Shown here one piece after another: positions 16,794 to 45,370 of a DNA stretch of 64,000 nucleotides. Numbering within the stretch: position 1 is the stretch's first letter; each line of letters opens with the position of its first letter. A program made the translations under genes and the position numbers. This stretch comes from Escherichia coli O157:H7 (GTDB taxonomy: Bacteria > Pseudomonadota > Gammaproteobacteria > Enterobacterales > Enterobacteriaceae), in the NCBI RefSeq assembly GCF_013167455.1, contig NZ_CP038328.1, one strand, 5' to 3'. Below the pieces are notes generated by a model. The model was not told where the DNA came from, made no database searches, and was given only the letters and a program-made list of their open reading frames with translations.

Positions 16794-20211
<3,418 letters not shown>

Positions 20212-26719: not shown

Positions 26720-27595
26720 ATGACCAGTAGCTATCTGCATTTTCCGGAGTTTGATCCGGTCATTTTCTCAATAGGACCCGTGGCGCTTCACTGGTACGGC
26801 CTGATGTATCTGGTGGGTTTCATTTTTGCAATGTGGCTGGCAACACGACGGGCGAATCGTCCGGGCAGCGGCTGGACCAAAAATGAAGTTGAAAACTTAC
26901 TCTATGCGGGCTTCCTCGGCGTCTTCCTCGGGGGACGTATTGGTTATGTTCTGTTCTACAATTTCCCGCAGTTTATGGCCGATCCGCTGTATCTGTTCCG
27001 TGTCTGGGACGGCGGCATGTCTTTCCACGGCGGCCTGATTGGCGTTATCGTGGTGATGATTATCTTTGCCCGCCGTACTAAACGTTCCTTCTTCCAGGTT
27101 TCTGATTTTATCGCACCACTCATTCCGTTTGGTCTTGGTGCCGGGCGTTTGGGCAACTTTATTAACGGTGAATTGTGGGGCCGCGTTGACCCGAACTTCC
27201 CGTTTGCCATGCTGTTCCCAGGCTCCCGTACAGAAGATATTTTGCTGCTGCAAACCAACCCGCAGTGGCAATCCATTTTCGACACTTACGGTGTGCTGCC
27301 GCGCCACCCATCACAGCTTTACGAGCTGCTGCTGGAAGGTGTGGTGCTGTTTATTATCCTCAACCTGTATATTCGTAAACCGCGCCCGATGGGAGCCGTG
27401 TCTGGCTTGTTCCTGATTGGCTACGGCGCGTTTCGCATCATTGTTGAGTTTTTCCGCCAGCCCGACGCGCAGTTTACCGGTGCCTGGGTGCAGTACATCA
27501 GCATGGGGCAAATTCTTTCCATCCCGATGATTGTCGCGGGTGTGATCATGATGGTCTGGGCATATCGTCGCAGCCCACAGCAACACGTTTCCTGA
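26720..27595 (+). CDS. lgt: prolipoprotein diacylglyceryl transferase
   Basis: 291-aa membrane ORF; recognised. Confidence 0.95.
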
Positions 27596-27601
27596 GGAAC
27601 C

Positions 27602-28396
27602 ATGAAACAGTATTTAGAACTGATGCAAAAAGTGCTCGACGAAGGCACACAGAAAAACGACCGTACCGGAACCGGAACGCTTTCCATTTTTGGTCATCAG
27701 ATGCGTTTTAACCTGCAGGATGGATTCCCGCTGGTGACAACTAAACGTTGCCACCTGCGTTCCATCATCCATGAACTGCTGTGGTTTCTGCAGGGCGACA
27801 CTAACATTGCTTATCTACACGAAAACAATGTCACCATCTGGGACGAATGGGCCGATGAAAACGGCGACCTCGGACCAGTGTATGGTAAACAGTGGCGCGC
27901 CTGGCCAACGCCAGATGGTCGTCATATTGACCAGATCACTACGGTACTGAACCAGCTGAAAAACGACCCGGATTCCCGCCGCATTATTGTTTCAGCGTGG
28001 AACGTAGGCGAACTGGATAAAATGGCGCTGGCACCGTGCCATGCATTCTTCCAGTTCTATGTGGCAGACGGCAAACTCTCTTGCCAGCTTTATCAGCGCT
28101 CCTGTGACGTCTTCCTCGGCCTGCCGTTCAACATTGCCAGCTACGCGTTACTGGTGCATATGATGGCGCAGCAGTGCGATCTGGAAGTGGGTGATTTTGT
28201 CTGGACCGGTGGCGATACGCACCTGTACAGTAATCATATGGATCAAACTCATCTGCAATTAAGCCGTGAACCGCGTCCGCTGCCGAAGTTGATTATCAAA
28301 CGTAAACCCGAATCCATCTTCGACTACCGTTTCGAAGACTTTGAGATTGAAGGCTACGATCCACATCCGGGCATTAAAGCGCCGGTGGCTATCTAA
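27602..28396 (+). CDS. thyA: thymidylate synthase
   Basis: 264-aa ORF starting [49 protein letters not shown]. Confidence 0.97.
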
Positions 28397-28579
28397 TTAC
28401 GAAACATCCTGCCAGAGCCGACGCCAGTGTGCGTCGGTTTTTTTACCCTCCGTTAAATTCTTCGAGACGCCTTCCCGAAATTTTGCAACGTCCTGCAACG
28501 GCGTAAATAGTCCGGAAGATGCGCCGAAGAAATAGAAACTGGCCCTCGTCTTTTTTTCTCCTCGCTCCATACTGCCGGC

Positions 28580-29050
28580 ATGAAAACACAACGTGGTTAT
28601 ACGCTGATTGAAACGCTGGTCGCGATGCTGATTTTGGTCATGCTAAGCGCAAGTGGACTCTATGGCTGGCAATACTGGCAGCAGTCGCAACGGCTTTGGC
28701 AAACCGCCAGCCAGGCGCGGGACTATTTGCTCTATTTACGTGAAGATGCCAACTGGCATAACCGCGACCACAGTATCAGTTTTATCAGGGAGGGGACGTT
28801 ATGGTGCCTTGTGAGTTCCGTTGCTGGGGCGAATACCTGTCATGGCAGTTCACCATTGGTCTTTGTGCCACGCTGGCCCGAAGTCGAAATGAGCGACCTG
28901 ACACCTTCGCTTGCTTTCTTTGGCCTGCGCAATACCGCATGGGCCGGGCATATTGGCTTCAAAAACTCAACGGGCGAGTGGTGGCTGGTGGTTTCGCCGT
29001 GGGGAAGACTCCGGCTTTGTCAGCAAGGAGAAACAGAAGGATGCCTGTAA
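28580..29050 (+). CDS. ppdA: prepilin-type minor pseudopilin (prepilin peptidase-dependent protein A)
   Basis: 156-aa ORF with type IV prepilin-like N-terminus [20 protein letters not shown]. Confidence 0.88.
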
Positions 29051-29604
29051 AAGAGCAAGGTTTTTCTCTGCTGGAAGTGTTGATTGCTATGGCGATCAGT
29101 AGCGTATTGTTGTTGGGGGCTGCACGCTTTCTGCCTGCGTTACAGCGTGAAAGTTTAACGAGCACCCGTAAGCTGGCACTGGAAGATGAAATCTGGCTGC
29201 GGGTATTTACCGTCGCGAAGCATCTCCAGAGGGCGGGTTATTGTCATGGCATCTGTACCGGCGAAGGGCTGGAAATTGTCGGACAGGGTGACTGTATCAT
29301 TGTGCAGTGGGATGCGAACAGTAACGGTATCTGGGATCGCGAACCGGTAAAAGAGTCCGACCAGATTGGATTTCGTCTGAAGGAGCAAGTGTTGGAAACG
29401 CTACGCGGTGCGACATCCTGTGAAGGTAAGGGCTGGGATAAAGTCACTAATCCGGATGCCATCATTATCGACACTTTTCAGGTCGTACGTCAGGATGTCA
29501 GCGGCTTCTCGCCGGTGTTGACGGTTAATATGCGTGCTGCCAGTAAGTCTGAACCGCAAACCGTGGTGGATGCCAGCTATAGCGTGACAGGATTCAACCT
29601 GTGA
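29041..29604 (+). CDS. ppdB: prepilin-type minor pseudopilin (prepilin peptidase-dependent protein B)
   Basis: ORF-track ORF starts at 28801, but the prepilin N-terminus [25 protein letters not shown] begins at ATG 29041 (187 aa). Confidence 0.85.
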
Positions 29605-30008
29605 ACCGCGAAAAGGGTGTTTCGTCACTGGCTCTGGTCCTGATGCTGCTGGTTTTGGGTAGCTTGCTATTACAAGGAATGAGCCAGCAGGATCGCAGTT
29701 TTGCCTCTCGCGTGAGCATGGAAAGTCAGTCACTGCGCCGCCAGGCCATCGTTCAGTCGGCGTTGGCGTGGGGGAAAATGCACTCCTGGCAGACGCAGCC
29801 CGCAGTTCAGTGCTTACTGTACGCTGCCACTGGTGCCCGGGTTTGTTTGCGTTTACTGGAAGATAATGAAGCCTTATTAATTGCCGGTTATGAAGGCGTT
29901 TCGTTGTGGCGAACAGGCGAAGTCATTGATGGAAAAATTGTTTTTTCGCCACGCGGCTGGAGCGATTTTTGTCCGCTGAAAGAGGGGGCGTTATGTCAGC
30001 TTCCCTGA
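29601..30008 (+). CDS. ygdB: small membrane-anchored protein in the ppd operon
   Basis: 135-aa ORF with N-terminal hydrophobic segment; start overlaps ppdB stop. Confidence 0.8.
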
Positions 30009-30316
30009 AGAATCAACAAGGCTTTAGCCTGCCGGAGGTAATGTTGGCGATGGTGTTGATGGTGATGATTGTCACTGCGTTATCGGGTTTCCAGCGAACA
30101 TTAATGAACAGTCTTACCAGCAGAAACCAGTACCAACAGCTCTGGCGGCATGGTTGGCAGCAAACGCAATTGCGCGCGATTTCGCCACCTGCCAACTGGC
30201 AGGTCAACCGAATGCAGACATCGCAGGCGGGATGTGTCAGCATCAGCGTTACGCTAGTTTCACCCGGGGGCAGAGCAGGCGAGATGACCCGCCTGCATTG
30301 CCCGAATCGTCAGTAG
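29993..30316 (+). CDS. ppdC: prepilin-type minor pseudopilin (prepilin peptidase-dependent protein C)
   Basis: Prepilin-like N-terminus [27 protein letters not shown] from ATG 29993 (107 aa); the ORF-track entry begins 8 codons earlier at a TTG. Confidence 0.8.
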
Positions 30317-30328
30317 TCAGGAGCCGCT

Positions 30329-33300
30329 ATGTTAAGGGTCTACCATTCCAATCGTCTGGACGTGCTGGAAGCGTTGATGGAGTTTATTGTCGAACGCGAA
30401 CGGCTGGACGATCCTTTCGAACCAGAGATGATTCTGGTGCAAAGTACCGGTATGGCACAGTGGCTGCAAATGACCCTGTCGCAAAAGTTTGGTATTGCGG
30501 CAAACATTGATTTTCCGCTGCCTGCGAGCTTTATCTGGGATATGTTCGTCCGGGTGTTACCGGAGATCCCCAAAGAGAGCGCCTTTAACAAACAGAGCAT
30601 GAGCTGGAAACTGATGACTCTGCTGCCGCAATTGCTGGAGCGCGAAGACTTTACCCTGTTGCGGCATTATCTGACTGACGATAGCGACAAGCGAAAGCTG
30701 TTCCAGCTTTCCTCAAAAGCGGCGGACCTGTTTGACCAGTATCTGGTCTATCGTCCGGACTGGCTGGCACAGTGGGAAACAGGACATTTGGTTGAAGGGC
30801 TGGGAGAGGCACAGGCCTGGCAAGCGCCGTTGTGGAAGGCGCTGGTGGAATATACCCATGAACTCGGACAACCGCGCTGGCACCGCGCCAATCTCTATCA
30901 GCGCTTTATCGAAACGCTGGAGTCCGCGACGACCTGCCCGCCGGGGTTACCTTCGCGCGTCTTTATATGCGGTATTTCCGCGTTACCGCCTGTTTATCTC
31001 CAGGCGCTCCAGGCGCTGGGTAAACATATTGAAATCCATCTCCTGTTTACCAACCCCTGCCGTTATTACTGGGGCGACATTAAAGATCCTGCTTATCTGG
31101 CGAAACTACTGACTCGCCAGCGCCGACACAGTTTTGAAGATCACGAATTACCGCTATTTCGCGACAGCGAAAATGCCGGGCAGCTCTTTAACAGCGATGG
31201 TGAACAGGATGTCGGCAACCCGCTGCTGGCCTCATGGGGCAAGCTTGGGCGCGACTACATTTATCTCCTTTCTGACCTGGAGAGCAGCCAGGAGCTGGAC
31301 GCCTTTGTCGATGTGACGCCAGATAACCTGCTGCATAACATTCAGTCTGACATTCTGGAACTGGAAAACCGCGCCGTTGCTGGTGTGAACATCGAAGAGT
31401 TTTCCCGTAGCGATAACAAACGTCCGCTTGATCCACTGGATAGCAGTATCACCTTCCACGTTTGCCATAGCCCGCAGCGTGAAGTTGAAGTTTTACACGA
31501 TCGCCTGCTGGCGATGCTGGAAGAAGACCCGACACTTACTCCGCGCGACATCATCGTGATGGTGGCTGATATCGACAGCTACAGTCCGTTTATTCAGGCT
31601 GTGTTTGGTAGCGCACCTGCGGATCGTTACCTGCCTTACGCCATTTCCGACCGTCGGGCGCGGCAGTCGCATCCTGTACTTGAAGCGTTTATCAGCCTGT
31701 TATCGTTGCCAGACAGCCGCTTTGTGTCGGAAGACGTGCTGGCATTACTGGATGTGCCGGTGCTGGCGGCGCGGTTTGACATCACCGAAGAAGGGCTGCG
31801 TTATTTACGTCAGTGGGTCAACGAATCCGGCATTCGTTGGGGGATAGATGACGACAACGTTCGCGAGCTGGAACTCCCCGCCACCGGACAACACACCTGG
31901 CGATTTGGCCTGACGCGTATGTTGTTGGGCTACGCGATGGAGAGCGCGCAGGGCGAGTGGCAATCGGTTCTACCTTATGATGAATCGAGCGGCTTAATTG
32001 CAGAACTGGTGGGGCATCTGGCTTCACTGCTAATGCAGCTAAACATCTGGCGTCGCGGGCTGGCACAGGAGCGTCCGCTGGAAGAGTGGTTGCCGGTTTG
32101 TCGCGATATGCTCAACGCCCTCTTCCTGCCGGATGCGGAAACCGAAGCGGCGATGACGCTGATCGAACAACAATGGCAGGCGATTATCGCCGAAGGTTTA
32201 GGTGCGCAGTATGGCGATGCGGTGCCGCTGTCACTATTGCGTGATGAACTGGCACAGCGCCTGGATCAAGAACGTATCAGCCAGCGTTTTCTCGCCGGGC
32301 CGGTTAACATTTGTACTCTGATGCCAATGCGTTCAATTCCGTTCAAAGTGGTTTGCCTGCTGGGAATGAACGACGGCGTTTATCCACGTCAGCTTGCGCC
32401 ATTGGGCTTTGACCTGATGAGCCAGAAACCGAAGCGTGGCGACCGTAGCCGTCGCGATGACGACCGCTACCTGTTCCTGGAAGCGTTAATTTCCGCGCAG
32501 CAAAAACTCTATATCAGCTATATCGGGCGTTCCATTCAGGATAACAGTGAACGTTTCCCGTCGGTACTGGTGCAGGAACTGATCGACTACATCGGGCAAA
32601 GTCATTATCTACCGGGCGATGAAGCGCTCAACTGTGATGAAAGCGAGGCAAGGGTAAAAGCGCATCTTACTTGCCTCCATACCCGGATGCCGTTTGATCC
32701 GCAAAACTACCAGCCAGGCGAACGACAAAGCTATGCTCGTGAATGGCTACCTGCGGCCAGCCAGGCTGGTAAAGCACATTCTGAATTTGTTCAGCCGCTG
32801 CCGTTTACCTTACCGGAAACCGTGCCGCTGGAAACGCTACAACGATTCTGGGCACATCCGGTGCGGGCGTTCTTCCAGATGCGTTTGCAGGTGAACTTCC
32901 GTACTGAAGACAGCGAAATCCCCGACACCGAGCCATTTATTCTGGAAGGACTTAGCCGTTATCAAATCAATCAGCAGTTATTGAATGCACTGGTTGAGCA
33001 GGATGATGCCGAACGCTTGTTCCGCCGCTTCCGGGCGGCAGGGGATTTACCGTATGGCGCTTTTGGTGAAATTTTCTGGGAAACACAGTGCCAGGAGATG
33101 CAGCAGCTTGCCGACAGAGTCATTGCCTGTCGCCAGCCGGGGCAGAGTATGGAAATTGATCTCGCTTGCAACGGTGTGCAGATAACTGGCTGGTTGCCGC
33201 AGGTGCAGCCGGATGGCTTGTTGCGCTGGCGTCCCTCTTTATTAAGTGTGGCGCAGGGAATGCAACTTTGGCTGGAACACCTTGTCTACTGTGCCAGCGG

Positions 33301-33697
33301 TGGTAATGGTGAAAGTCGCCTTTTTCTACGCAAAGACGGCGAGTGGCGTTTTCCGCCGCTTGCAGCCGAACAGGCTTTGCATTACCTCTCACAACTGATT
33401 GAGGGGTATCGTGAAGGGATGTCCGCGCCATTGCTGGTGTTACCTGAAAGTGGCGGCGCGTGGCTAAAAACCTGTTATGACGCGCAAAACGATGCCATGC
33501 TGGATGACGATTCCACGTTGCAAAAAGCCCGTACGAAATTCCTTCAGGCTTACGAAGGCAACATGATGGTGAGTGGCGAAGGTGATGATATCTGGTATCA
33601 AAGGCTCTGGCGGCAATTAACACCAGAGACAATGGAGGCAATCGTTGAACAGTCGCAACGTTTCCTGTTACCGCTGTTTCGCTTTAATCAGTCATGA
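30329..33697 (+). CDS. recC: exodeoxyribonuclease V (RecBCD) gamma subunit
   Basis: 1122-aa ORF starting MLRVYHSNRLDVLEALMEFIVERERLDDPFEPEMILVQSTGMAQWLQMTL. Confidence 0.97.
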   Translation: MLRVYHSNRLDVLEALMEFIVERERLDDPFEPEMILVQSTGMAQWLQMTLSQKFGIAANIDFPLPASFIWDMFVRVLPEIPKESAFNKQSMSWKLMTLLPQLLEREDFTLLRHYLTDDSDKRKLFQLSSKAADLFDQYLVYRPDWLAQWETGHLVEGLGEAQAWQAPLWKALVEYTHELGQPRWHRANLYQRFIETLESATTCPPGLPSRVFICGISALPPVYLQALQALGKHIEIHLLFTNPCRYYWGDIKDPAYLAKLLTRQRRHSFEDHELPLFRDSENAGQLFNSDGEQDVGNPLLASWGKLGRDYIYLLSDLESSQELDAFVDVTPDNLLHNIQSDILELENRAVAGVNIEEFSRSDNKRPLDPLDSSITFHVCHSPQREVEVLHDRLLAMLEEDPTLTPRDIIVMVADIDSYSPFIQAVFGSAPADRYLPYAISDRRARQSHPVLEAFISLLSLPDSRFVSEDVLALLDVPVLAARFDITEEGLRYLRQWVNESGIRWGIDDDNVRELELPATGQHTWRFGLTRMLLGYAMESAQGEWQSVLPYDESSGLIAELVGHLASLLMQLNIWRRGLAQERPLEEWLPVCRDMLNALFLPDAETEAAMTLIEQQWQAIIAEGLGAQYGDAVPLSLLRDELAQRLDQERISQRFLAGPVNICTLMPMRSIPFKVVCLLGMNDGVYPRQLAPLGFDLMSQKPKRGDRSRRDDDRYLFLEALISAQQKLYISYIGRSIQDNSERFPSVLVQELIDYIGQSHYLPGDEALNCDESEARVKAHLTCLHTRMPFDPQNYQPGERQSYAREWLPAASQAGKAHSEFVQPLPFTLPETVPLETLQRFWAHPVRAFFQMRLQVNFRTEDSEIPDTEPFILEGLSRYQINQQLLNALVEQDDAERLFRRFRAAGDLPYGAFGEIFWETQCQEMQQLADRVIACRQPGQSMEIDLACNGVQITGWLPQVQPDGLLRWRPSLLSVAQGMQLWLEHLVYCASGGNGESRLFLRKDGEWRFPPLAAEQALHYLSQLIEGYREGMSAPLLVLPESGGAWLKTCYDAQNDAMLDDDSTLQKARTKFLQAYEGNMMVSGEGDDIWYQRLWRQLTPETMEAIVEQSQRFLLPLFRFNQS

Positions 33698-45073: not shown

Positions 45074-45150
<77 letters not shown>

Positions 45151-45183
45151 TCACCGTACTGCTTTTACTTCATCAAATTTGAT

Positions 45184-45260
<77 letters not shown>

Positions 45261-45293
45261 TCACCGTACTGCTTTACTTCATCAAATTTTAAT

Positions 45294-45370
<77 letters not shown>

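Follow-up and report, generated by a model that had tools for sequence, protein, structure and literature searches.

The ppdA-ppdB-ygdB-ppdC cluster

Four short genes occupy one strand of the window (the whole stretch of DNA analysed here, 64,000 nucleotides) between positions 28580 and 30316, with start codons that agree with the RefSeq annotation. They are listed here with the gene that follows them, the slash in each motif standing after Gly(-1):

28580-29050, + strand: ppdA, ATG start, 156 aa, cleavage motif QRG/YTLIE, GspH/FimU-like type IV minor pilin
29041-29604, + strand: ppdB, ATG start, 187 aa, motif EQG/FSLLE, putative GspJ/PilW-position minor pilin
29601-30008, + strand: ygdB, GTG start, 135 aa, EKG/VSSLA, DUF2509, non-canonical minor pilin without Glu+5
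29993-30316, + strand: ppdC, ATG start, 107 aa, motif QQG/FSLPE, GspI/PilV-like minor pilin
30317..30328, + strand: ppdC-recC spacer, 12 nt, with the recC Shine-Dalgarno AGGAG at 30319-30323
30329..33697, + strand: annotated recC (exodeoxyribonuclease V gamma subunit), ATG start, ORF of 1122 aa

The gene names given in the original prediction are right according to both the NCBIfam equivalogs and the RefSeq annotation, which places the same genes at identical coordinates. PpdA, PpdB, YgdB and PpdC match PRK10506, PRK10557, PRK11521 and PRK10332 end-to-end (E 1e-64 to 1e-98, with 1.3e-73 for PpdA, 7.8e-98 for PpdB and 1.8e-64 for PpdC), at 246, 325, 252 and 215 bits against cut-offs of 158, 120, 159 and 86, and Pfam adds DUF2509 in YgdB (7.5e-39) and T2SSppdC in PpdC (4.4e-30). 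Of 5426 complete E. coli genomes, 5425 carry the ppdA-ppdC block, and the genes are 95–100% identical to those of other E. coli; ygdB has diverged furthest (versus strain XJW9B263, 95.6% identity in nucleotides and 94.1% in amino acids). Given the equivalog scores, the Pfam matches and this presence across E. coli, the four reading frames are not a product of chance. Minus-strand reading frames within the ppd genes are unsupported and were discounted. The 'prepilin peptidase-dependent' naming of these genes stems from annotation alone.

The overlapping stops and starts that had been described can be read directly from the sequence: ppdA and ppdB share 10 nt (ATGCCTGTAA), ppdB and ygdB share 4 nt (GTGA), and ygdB and ppdC share 16 nt. 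No Shine-Dalgarno sequence was found upstream of the ppdA start. There is strong reason to regard the region as the chromosomal ppdA-ppdB-ygdB-ppdC operon of an O157:H7-type genome, in all likelihood encoding the core set of four minor pilins for the E. coli type IVa (competence) pilus. The observation holds but is unremarkable, having been published before; the genes, their role as minor pilins, Sxy/CRP-S regulation, scattered machinery and position beside recC have been in the literature since 2006–2012 and in standard annotation.

The claim that no major pilin, secretin or ATPase lies nearby holds for the whole 64 kb window, in which no such gene and no other pilus-machinery gene is annotated; the window is colinear, at 99.96–99.99%, with an annotated O157:H7 chromosome from ygeH through sdaC. 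Genes of the gsp operon (secretin, ATPase, platform protein, GspG) are likewise absent from it. An orphan set with its machinery elsewhere, as had been proposed, is also what the K-12 map indicates, where ppdD-hofB-hofC lie at 114.5–117.5 kb, hofMNOPQ at 3.519–3.523 Mb and gspO at 3.466 Mb, and where the gsp operon forms a separate locus with its own gspH-I-J-K. [quoted passage not shown]

Prepilin motifs, folds and selection

The class III signal peptide pattern (a basic leader, Gly(-1), a hydrophobic residue at +1, Glu+5 and ~20 hydrophobic residues) fits PpdA, PpdB and PpdC. The Gly(-1)/Glu(+5) prepilin motif is present in all three, with Pfam N_methyl matches of 3e-7 to 6e-9, and Glu+5 is kept in 38/38 PpdA, 9/9 PpdB and 7/9 PpdC family members. 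In the YgdB family, Gly-1 occurs in 53 of 55 members and Glu+5 in none of the 55, with the hydrophobic helix present. Of the four prepilin-like N-termini originally reported, those of PpdA, PpdB and PpdC therefore stand, and that of YgdB has no canonical motif. The model of YgdB (pLDDT 95, helix H6-60 and five strands) predicts a minor-pilin fold, in which a long N-terminal helix is packed against an antiparallel beta-sheet, as does the AlphaFold model of PpdA (pLDDT 87.2, helix H9-60 and eight strands).

The seven best PDB matches to the PpdA model are all EpsH, XcpH or FimU (probability 1.00, TM 0.50–0.63), so that the significant matches comprise GspH-type proteins only, and a distant PpdA homologue has a weak Pfam GspH match. 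A Foldseek search of the YgdB model against the PDB gave no significant match, and PDB sequence searches with the four products returned no solved relatives, the single match being a weak one between PpdB and the Thermus pilin TTHA1219 (E 0.044). PpdB homologues carry Pfam PF27121 (PpdB), and weak hits, among them 20 bits to the gspJ model TIGR01711 (cut-off 64.85), suggest that PpdB may take the 'J position'.

Given this kinship, it might be expected that the ppd genes are GspH/I/J/K minor pseudopilins that serve the Gsp type II secretion (T2SS) machinery and not a type IV pilus. The Pfam title of the PpdC family is 'Type II secretion prepilin peptidase dependent protein C', the closest solved fold to PpdA is the T2SS pseudopilin EpsH, and the PpdC family aligns with K-12 GspI over 96 columns, near full length (hhalign probability 95.1%, E 3e-8). 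The ppd set can also substitute for PulHIJK: with pulHIJK mutated, PulG assembly is primed by PpdAB-YgdB-PpdC (Cisneros 2012, cited in PMC5131608). However, the curated GspH, GspI, GspJ and GspK models (TIGR01708, TIGR01707, TIGR01711 and NF037980) were widely missed, at 18.3, 16.4, 20 and 13.5 bits against cut-offs of 80, 44.35, 64.85 and 130, and these sub-threshold matches are limited to the N-terminal helix. With the N-terminal 32 residues removed, no hhalign comparison of the ppd globular domains with K-12 GspG/H/I/J/K was significant, the best being PpdC with GspI (E 0.0015, probability 16%). In the domain search against the GspH/I/J/K families, put forward with the original prediction, all four products thus fall below the family cut-offs, and the likeness that remains is at the N-terminal helix and at the fold or profile level (PpdA with GspH/FimU, PpdC with GspI). 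The type IV pilus minor pilin FimU, moreover, fits PpdA as well as EpsH does (TM 0.56–0.63, probability 1.00), the K-12 gsp operon already has gspH-I-J-K, YgdB (135 aa) has no counterpart of the large additional domain in GspK (327 aa), and the literature places the ppd genes in the PpdD/Hof pilus and the Sxy competence regulon (PMC12616744; bioRxiv 10.1101/856302). A role in type II secretion is therefore extremely improbable, and the assignment of the ppd products as type IVa pilus minor pilins is supported.

A second expectation might be that the cluster is a functionless, decaying remnant, retained only through lying in the transcription unit or promoter region of recC, a gene essential to repair. 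The genes are unexpressed in ordinary culture (PMC3330819), ppdA is without a Shine-Dalgarno sequence, promoter-region variants with IS1203 occur in nature, and a PpdA::PpdC fusion exists (P0062), which implies deletion of ppdB-ygdB. The ppd proteins also evolve 4–10 times faster than those of the flanking genes, for which dN/dS is at most 0.05. Yet dN/dS for the ppd genes, at 0.22–0.29 within E. coli and 0.12–0.21 versus Salmonella, is far under 1, none of the four frames is broken here or in the annotation of 10 further E. coli genomes inspected, and homologues at 25–30% identity still keep the motif residues and Cys pairs. The order of the four genes is kept in distant genomes with other upstream neighbours, the genes support pilus assembly once expressed (bioRxiv 10.1101/856302; PMC5131608), and the H. 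influenzae orthologues are needed for DNA uptake (PMC12616744). Decay is accordingly very unlikely, and the substitution rates indicate genes that are under selection.

The ppdA promoter region and the junction with recC

Three elements lie between thyA and ppdA:

28414..28444, + strand: thyA intrinsic terminator, stem CCGACGC/GCGTCGG, 6-nt loop, run of seven T at 28438-28444
28458..28479, + strand: candidate CRP-S (Sxy-dependent CRP) site, core TTCGA-GACGCC-TTCCC at 28461-28476
28483..28498, + strand: conserved block of the ppdA promoter region, TTGCA-N6-TGCAA, which doubles as a 10-bp direct repeat of TGCAAC

The terminator folds as RNA at -16.6 kcal/mol (z -3.6; equalled by 0 of 200 shuffles), and its stem is preserved via compensatory changes in Salmonella, Klebsiella, Yokenella and Cronobacter. 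It was found by folding; a terminator scan did not report it, probably because the T-run was consumed by stem extension. This strong terminator therefore insulates the ppd operon from thyA transcription.

The candidate CRP-S site is the sole match of at least 8/10 between thyA and ppdA to the E. coli-type motif TGCGA-N6-TTCCA (as quoted in PMC6728893). A gapless 60-nt alignment with the K-12 ppdD promoter places it opposite TTCGT-AACGCC-TCGCA; the two promoters match at 35 of 60 positions, which none of 300 shuffles attained, and CTGCAACG stands in both, equally far from the candidate site. Neither the sxy nor the hofM promoter showed gapless similarity to that of ppdA beyond the level of shuffles; ppdD alone aligned. 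The TTCC of the site is invariant across five genera, and its left half is poorly conserved in two of them, Klebsiella and Yokenella. A palindromic CRP-S (TGCGA-N6-TCGCA, at most 2 mismatches) was not found between thyA and ppdA, and window-wide such matches are at or below chance (35 observed versus 43 expected). PMC12616744, citing earlier work, describes the operon as induced by Sxy with cAMP-CRP, ppdA being the most strongly induced gene.

Within the adjacent block, GCAA (28485-28488) and TGCAA (28494-28498) are invariant in the five genera, and the flanking intergenic sequence varies. By eye, the block does not match a sigma-54 promoter, because the GG of the -24 element is missing, and it matches neither a PurR box nor another CRP site. 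The thyA-ppdA spacer is identical at 183/183 positions between two E. coli strains, and the adjacent ppd and thyA genes differ by 1.3–4.4%. Natural variants carry IS1203 in the ppdA promoter region; in O157:H7 FRIK2455 it sits at 28469-28472. A sigma-70 promoter scan of 28200-30600 gave a single minus-strand match, at chance level, and TTGACA-N17-TATAAT with at most 3 mismatches was not found in 28397-30329, so that neither a core promoter for ppdA nor a recC-specific promoter is identifiable from these scans. Rfam gave no match (E at most 1) on either strand of 27500-31000.

Downstream, the 12-nt gap to recC that had been described is exact, with the recC ATG at 30329. The junction has no terminator-like fold (z +0.40), no stable hairpin and no Rfam match, and the sole strong terminator in the ppd-recC region is the one after thyA. 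Five genera share, without variation, the sequence TAGTCAGGAG, which comprises the ppdC stop codon and the Shine-Dalgarno; the spacer keeps its 12 nt in Klebsiella, Yokenella and Cronobacter, and Salmonella has 15 nt. The ppd order followed by recC is seen in these four genera and in three distant loci; recC is next after the ppd cluster in 8 of the 8 informative loci of other Enterobacterales-like genomes, meaning those with downstream sequence visible (two distant YgdB loci, one with the contig ending right after ppdC and one with 1.4 kb only, were left out). Synteny of the minor-pilin operon with recC has been described in Pasteurellaceae and Enterobacteriaceae (PMC12616744).

As a transcription unit, ppdAB-ygdB-ppdC-recC has one strand, short gaps and no internal intrinsic terminator, an arrangement that fits co-transcription of ppdA-ppdC with recC. 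It has been handled as one polycistronic operon with similar mRNA half-lives (PMC3936743). Transcripts from the ppdA promoter could enter recC, since nothing halts them at the 12-nt junction.

What such read-through would contribute is a different matter. It is quite possible, if doubtful, that the adjacency is inherited gene order, with recC served by its own promoter, located in or downstream of the ppd genes, and with ppdA-promoter transcription adding nothing meaningful to RecC. RecBCD is required constitutively, recC has a strong Shine-Dalgarno sequence of its own, and in distant relatives the ppdC-recC gap grows to 75 and 137 nt, which leaves space for a promoter. The ppd promoter is, in addition, silent without Sxy (PMC3330819), and no report of recC as Sxy-induced was found among the secondary sources examined. 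However, no sigma-70 consensus was seen within ppdA-ppdC, and the terminator-free junction, the 12-nt gap shared with three other genera, the invariant stop-plus-Shine-Dalgarno, the constant adjacency despite changing upstream neighbours and the similar mRNA half-lives of the five genes (PMC3936743) all run against it.

At the other extreme, the adjacency may have been selected for function, with Sxy-driven read-through raising RecC, and perhaps ptrA-recB-recD, while the DNA-uptake pilus is built. The persistence of recC where upstream neighbours differ, together with the invariant junction, would be consistent with this, and Sxy read-through would then link the uptake of DNA with its processing by RecBCD. 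The idea is speculative and probably incorrect.

Proposed pilus priming and comparison with known systems

The assignment of the ppd products as minor pilins may be set in a priming scheme, for which Sxy induction, the pilus-assembly role and interchangeability with PulHIJK are taken from the literature. The operon is silent in ordinary culture and would be turned on by cAMP-CRP with Sxy (TfoX), most likely via the asymmetric CRP-S site at ~28458-28479. The prepilin peptidase (GspO/PppA) would cut each ppd protein after Gly(-1), and the four proteins would then assemble in the inner membrane as a tip or priming complex, with PpdA in the position of GspH/FimU, PpdC in that of GspI/PilV, PpdB in that of GspJ/PilW and YgdB, without Glu+5, in that of GspK/PilX. 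This complex would nucleate polymerisation of the major pilin PpdD, which, like the ATPase HofB, the platform protein HofC, the HofMNOP alignment proteins and the HofQ secretin, would be supplied from elsewhere in the genome. Transcripts from the ppdA promoter may run on into recC, which would also be expressed independently of Sxy from another promoter. A more speculative possibility, following an in silico proposal for the Pasteurellaceae orthologue, is that PpdA acts as the DNA-binding tip subunit of the E. coli pilus.

The nearest known system is the E. coli K-12 cluster itself (b2826-b2823), which has the same genes, order, overlaps and thyA and recC neighbours, with differences that are only allelic and typical of the O157:H7 lineage. 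The T2SS set GspH-GspI-GspJ-GspK has the N-terminal helix architecture in common with the ppd products; the PpdA model has a GspH-like fold, and Glu+5 is missing in both YgdB and GspK. In contrast to the T2SS set, there is no gsp operon context here, YgdB and GspK differ in length (135 versus 327 aa), and the globular domains are without significant profile similarity, with curated thresholds unmet.

The fimU-pilV-pilW-pilX genes of P. aeruginosa likewise encode a four-protein priming set of a type IVa pilus. Sequence identity between the two sets is just 12–19%, and their order differs, being H-J-K-I-like in the ppd set and H-I-J-K-like in P. aeruginosa. No pilY1 or pilE partner adjoins the E. 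coli genes, unlike the P. aeruginosa set.

The comNOPQ operon of H. influenzae (HI0938-HI0941) also consists of four prepilin-type genes of similar size, co-oriented with and directly upstream of recC. Sequence similarity between comNOPQ and the ppd sets is undetected by BLAST (PMC1635313). DNA uptake in H. influenzae has been proven to need comNOPQ; in laboratory E. coli, natural transformation has yet to be demonstrated, even under Sxy induction (PMC3330819). The ppd genes beside recC are considered orthologues of H. influenzae pulG-HI0941/comNOPQ, regulated through CRP-S and Sxy (PMC1635313, PMC12616744).

Gene order and linkage to recC

The four genes are consecutive and overlapping, and they stop 12 nt ahead of recC, as the original prediction described; the overlaps are 10 nt (ppdA/ppdB), 4 nt (ppdB/ygdB) and 16 nt (ygdB/ppdC):

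28580-29050, plus strand: ppdA, 156 aa
29041-29604, plus strand: ppdB, 187 aa
29601-30008, plus strand: ygdB, GTG start, 135 aa
29993-30316, plus strand: ppdC, 107 aa
30329 (start), plus strand: recC, 12-nt gap after ppdC, with AGGAG inside the gap at 30319-30323

The ppdB and ppdC starts follow the RefSeq annotation, and with them the family models match end to end; a mechanical ORF list has longer frames for both. The window is an O157:H7-type E. coli chromosome, colinear from ygeH to sdaC with the O157:H7 reference strain FRIK2455 (NZ_CP015843.2, locus L002) at 99.96-99.99% identity, and the colinearity is broken only by a ~70-bp indel between lplT and tas (window about 20119-20120, L002 11652-11723) and at an IS1203 site in the thyA-ppdA spacer. 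At the left end of the window, about 1-9200, lie yqeH, yqeI, yqeJ, yqeK, ygeG and the first part of ygeH; this belongs to the degenerate type III secretion island ETT2, at its regulator end. ygeH, a HilA-family regulator, is annotated as frameshifted in FRIK2455. Three tandem tRNA-Met genes in the amiC-mltA interval (about 45074-45370, minus strand, from the colinear reference annotation) are ordinary.

Of 5426 complete E. coli genomes, 5425 carry the 1.9-kb ppd block, which was annotated as ppdA, ppdB, ygdB, ppdC, recC in all ten other E. coli genomes inspected. Among contigs encoding PpdA or YgdB homologues, recC follows the ppd cluster in 8/8 informative loci, window included; two further loci, uninformative on recC, stand outside this count. 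The order lgt-thyA-ppdA-ppdB-ygdB-ppdC-recC is found in Cronobacter, Salmonella, Klebsiella and Yokenella (ppdC-recC gaps of 12, 15, 12 and 12 nt, respectively), and the stop codon and Shine-Dalgarno sequence before recC, TAGTCAGGAG, are invariant across five enterobacterial genera. Three distant loci, with YgdB at 29-34% identity, have recC downstream at gaps of 137, 75 and 18 nt and quite different upstream genes: TerC, a metallophosphatase and DAO in one, a bacteriorhodopsin and a carotenoid oxygenase in another; the third begins at a contig edge. In the locus with the bacteriorhodopsin-family gene (L012 2184-3706, GCA_018494105.1), that gene and one for a beta-carotene dioxygenase (BCD) lie directly upstream of the ppdA-like cluster, and recB directly follows recC with no intervening ptrA.

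The thyA 3' end is a strong intrinsic terminator (28414-28444, -16.6 kcal/mol, z -3.6); in four other genera, compensatory changes preserve the pairing of its stem. The ppdC-recC junction carries no stable structure (RNA fold z +0.40), and Rfam gave no match on either strand. Judged from this arrangement, co-transcription of the ppd genes with recC, which is the accepted annotation, is plausible, and a transcript-stability study treats ppdAB-ygdB-ppdC-recC as one polycistronic operon (PMC3936743). Without Sxy the ppd genes are not expressed in E. coli (PMC3330819). recC must also have an Sxy-independent promoter, which sigma-70 consensus scans of 28200-30600 and 28397-30329 did not locate.

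The ppdA promoter region

Two E. coli strains that diverge by 1.3-4.4% in the adjacent ppd and thyA genes have an identical 183-nt thyA-ppdA spacer. Its conserved blocks in five genera are the terminator, TTCC (28472-28475), GCAA (28485-28488), TGCAA (28494-28498) and a further block immediately ahead of the ppdA start codon. No palindromic CRP-S site (an Sxy-dependent CRP site; TGCGA-N6-TCGCA, at most 2 mismatches) occurs between thyA and ppdA; the E. coli CRP-S motif given in the literature, TGCGA-N6-TTCCA (PMC6728893), is asymmetric, and TTCGA-GACGCC-TTCCC at 28461-28476 is the sole match of at least 8/10 to it in this interval. The upstream regions of ppdA and K-12 ppdD align without gaps at 35/60 matches, a score reached by 0/300 shuffles, with the candidate in register with the ppdD sequence TTCGT-AACGCC-TCGCA. 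CTGCAACG is common to both promoters at equal offset from the candidate, and the sxy promoter carries a 9/10 match to the motif, TGCGAGGCTCTTTCCG. From these comparisons 28458-28479 is likely a CRP-S site.

Downstream, 28483-28498 reads as TTGCA-N6-TGCAA or, alternatively, as a TGCAAC repeat at 10-bp spacing. Unlike the intergenic sequence on either side, TTGCA-N6-TGCAA is conserved across five enterobacterial genera, and the element fits none of the CRP-S, sigma-54 or sigma-70 consensuses.

In FRIK2455 the IS3-family element IS1203 (L002 20077-21385; absent from the window sequence) lies within the core of the candidate CRP-S site, at a point corresponding to window 28469-28472. Its expected effect there is either loss of Sxy/CRP control over the operon or transcription of the operon from an outward IS promoter.

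Divergence of the four genes

Against another E. coli strain the ppd genes have dN/dS of 0.22-0.29, compared with at most 0.03 for rppH, ptsP, lgt, thyA and recC; against Salmonella the values are 0.12-0.21 and, for flanking genes, 0.02-0.05. The ppd genes are therefore constrained, with protein evolution four to ten times faster than that of their neighbours, a pattern that is not that of pseudogenes. Surface-exposed pilus subunits usually show such fast but constrained evolution.

Within E. coli, ygdB is clearly the most divergent of the four (95.6% nucleotide identity and dS 0.106 against strain XJW9B263, its partners about 98.7% and about 0.03), which points to a patch of recombination or a separate class of allele in the O157 lineage. 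A 218-aa protein on 6 E. coli contigs (P0062) matches PpdA at 99% identity in its first part and has the Pfam domains N_methyl and T2SSppdC; it is apparently a PpdA::PpdC fusion, implying that ppdB-ygdB has been deleted naturally in some E. coli.

Minor pilins and the GspH/I/J/K set

All four proteins exceed the cut-offs of their NCBIfam equivalogs: PpdA (PRK10506, 246 bits, cut-off 158), PpdB (PRK10557, 325, cut-off 120), YgdB (PRK11521, 252, cut-off 159) and PpdC (PRK10332, 215, cut-off 86). Pfam places the N-terminal methylation motif in PpdA, PpdB and PpdC, DUF2509 in YgdB and T2SSppdC in PpdC. Gly(-1) occurs throughout the four family alignments (YgdB 53/55), and Glu(+5) in 38/38 PpdA, 9/9 PpdB, 7/9 PpdC and 0/55 YgdB sequences. 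Of the four prepilin-like N-termini predicted, three are thus canonical and that of YgdB is not; it resembles that of K-12 GspK (MNNEQRGVALLIVLMLLAL), a T2SS subunit likewise lacking Glu+5. The YgdB family is small (113 clusters at 50% identity among 1.84 billion proteins).

A match to the GspH/I/J/K families was absent by curated HMM, mostly absent by profile comparison and partial by fold. HMM scores were 18 bits for GspH (TIGR01708, cut-off 80), 16 for GspI (TIGR01707, 44), 20 for GspJ (TIGR01711, 65) and 13.5 for GspK (NF037980, 130), the sub-cut-off matches being restricted to the N-terminal helix. When the four family alignments were compared with K-12 GspG-K sequences, PpdC-GspI was the sole near-full-length alignment (96 columns, probability 95%, E 3e-8), and removal of 32 N-terminal residues left no significant match for any family. 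PDB sequence searches returned no solved structure for PpdA, PpdB, YgdB or PpdC. Seven PDB entries match the PpdA model (pLDDT 87) at probability 1.00, all of them GspH-type proteins: EpsH of V. cholerae, XcpH of P. aeruginosa and FimU, a minor pilin of type IV pili; the YgdB model had no significant Foldseek match in the PDB. Taken together, these results make the four proteins distant homologues of the GspH/I/J/K set, outside those families.

The prediction also held that no major pilin, secretin or ATPase is nearby and that the assembly machinery lies elsewhere. The 64-kb window has no gene for a pilin, ATPase, platform protein or secretin, and in K-12 the partners occupy separate loci:

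114.5-117.5 kb: ppdD-hofB-hofC
3.519-3.523 Mb: hofMNOPQ
cryptic gsp operon (with a gspH-I-J-K set of its own), at its end: gspO

The observation is confirmed and its interpretation essentially right, and all of substance on the operon was already known. Published work regards the E. coli genes as orthologous to H. influenzae pulG-HI0941, now comNOPQ (PMC1635313). The recC synteny is described again in a 2025 paper, which proposes PpdA/ComN as DNA receptor and cites Sinha 2009 and Jaskolska and Gerdes 2015 for Sxy regulation of the E. coli operon, with ppdA most strongly induced (PMC12616744); E. coli was not transformable even under Sxy induction (PMC3330819). An engineered E. coli pilus chassis took ppdA, ppdB, ygdB and ppdC as minor pilins and cloned them with hofBC, hofMNOPQ and gspO (bioRxiv 10.1101/856302), and PpdAB-YgdB-PpdC primed PulG assembly in a pulHIJK mutant (Cisneros et al. 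2012, cited in PMC5131608). The precise label is not pseudopilins but core minor pilins of a type IVa pilus, homologous to T2SS GspH/I/J/K in both fold and function.
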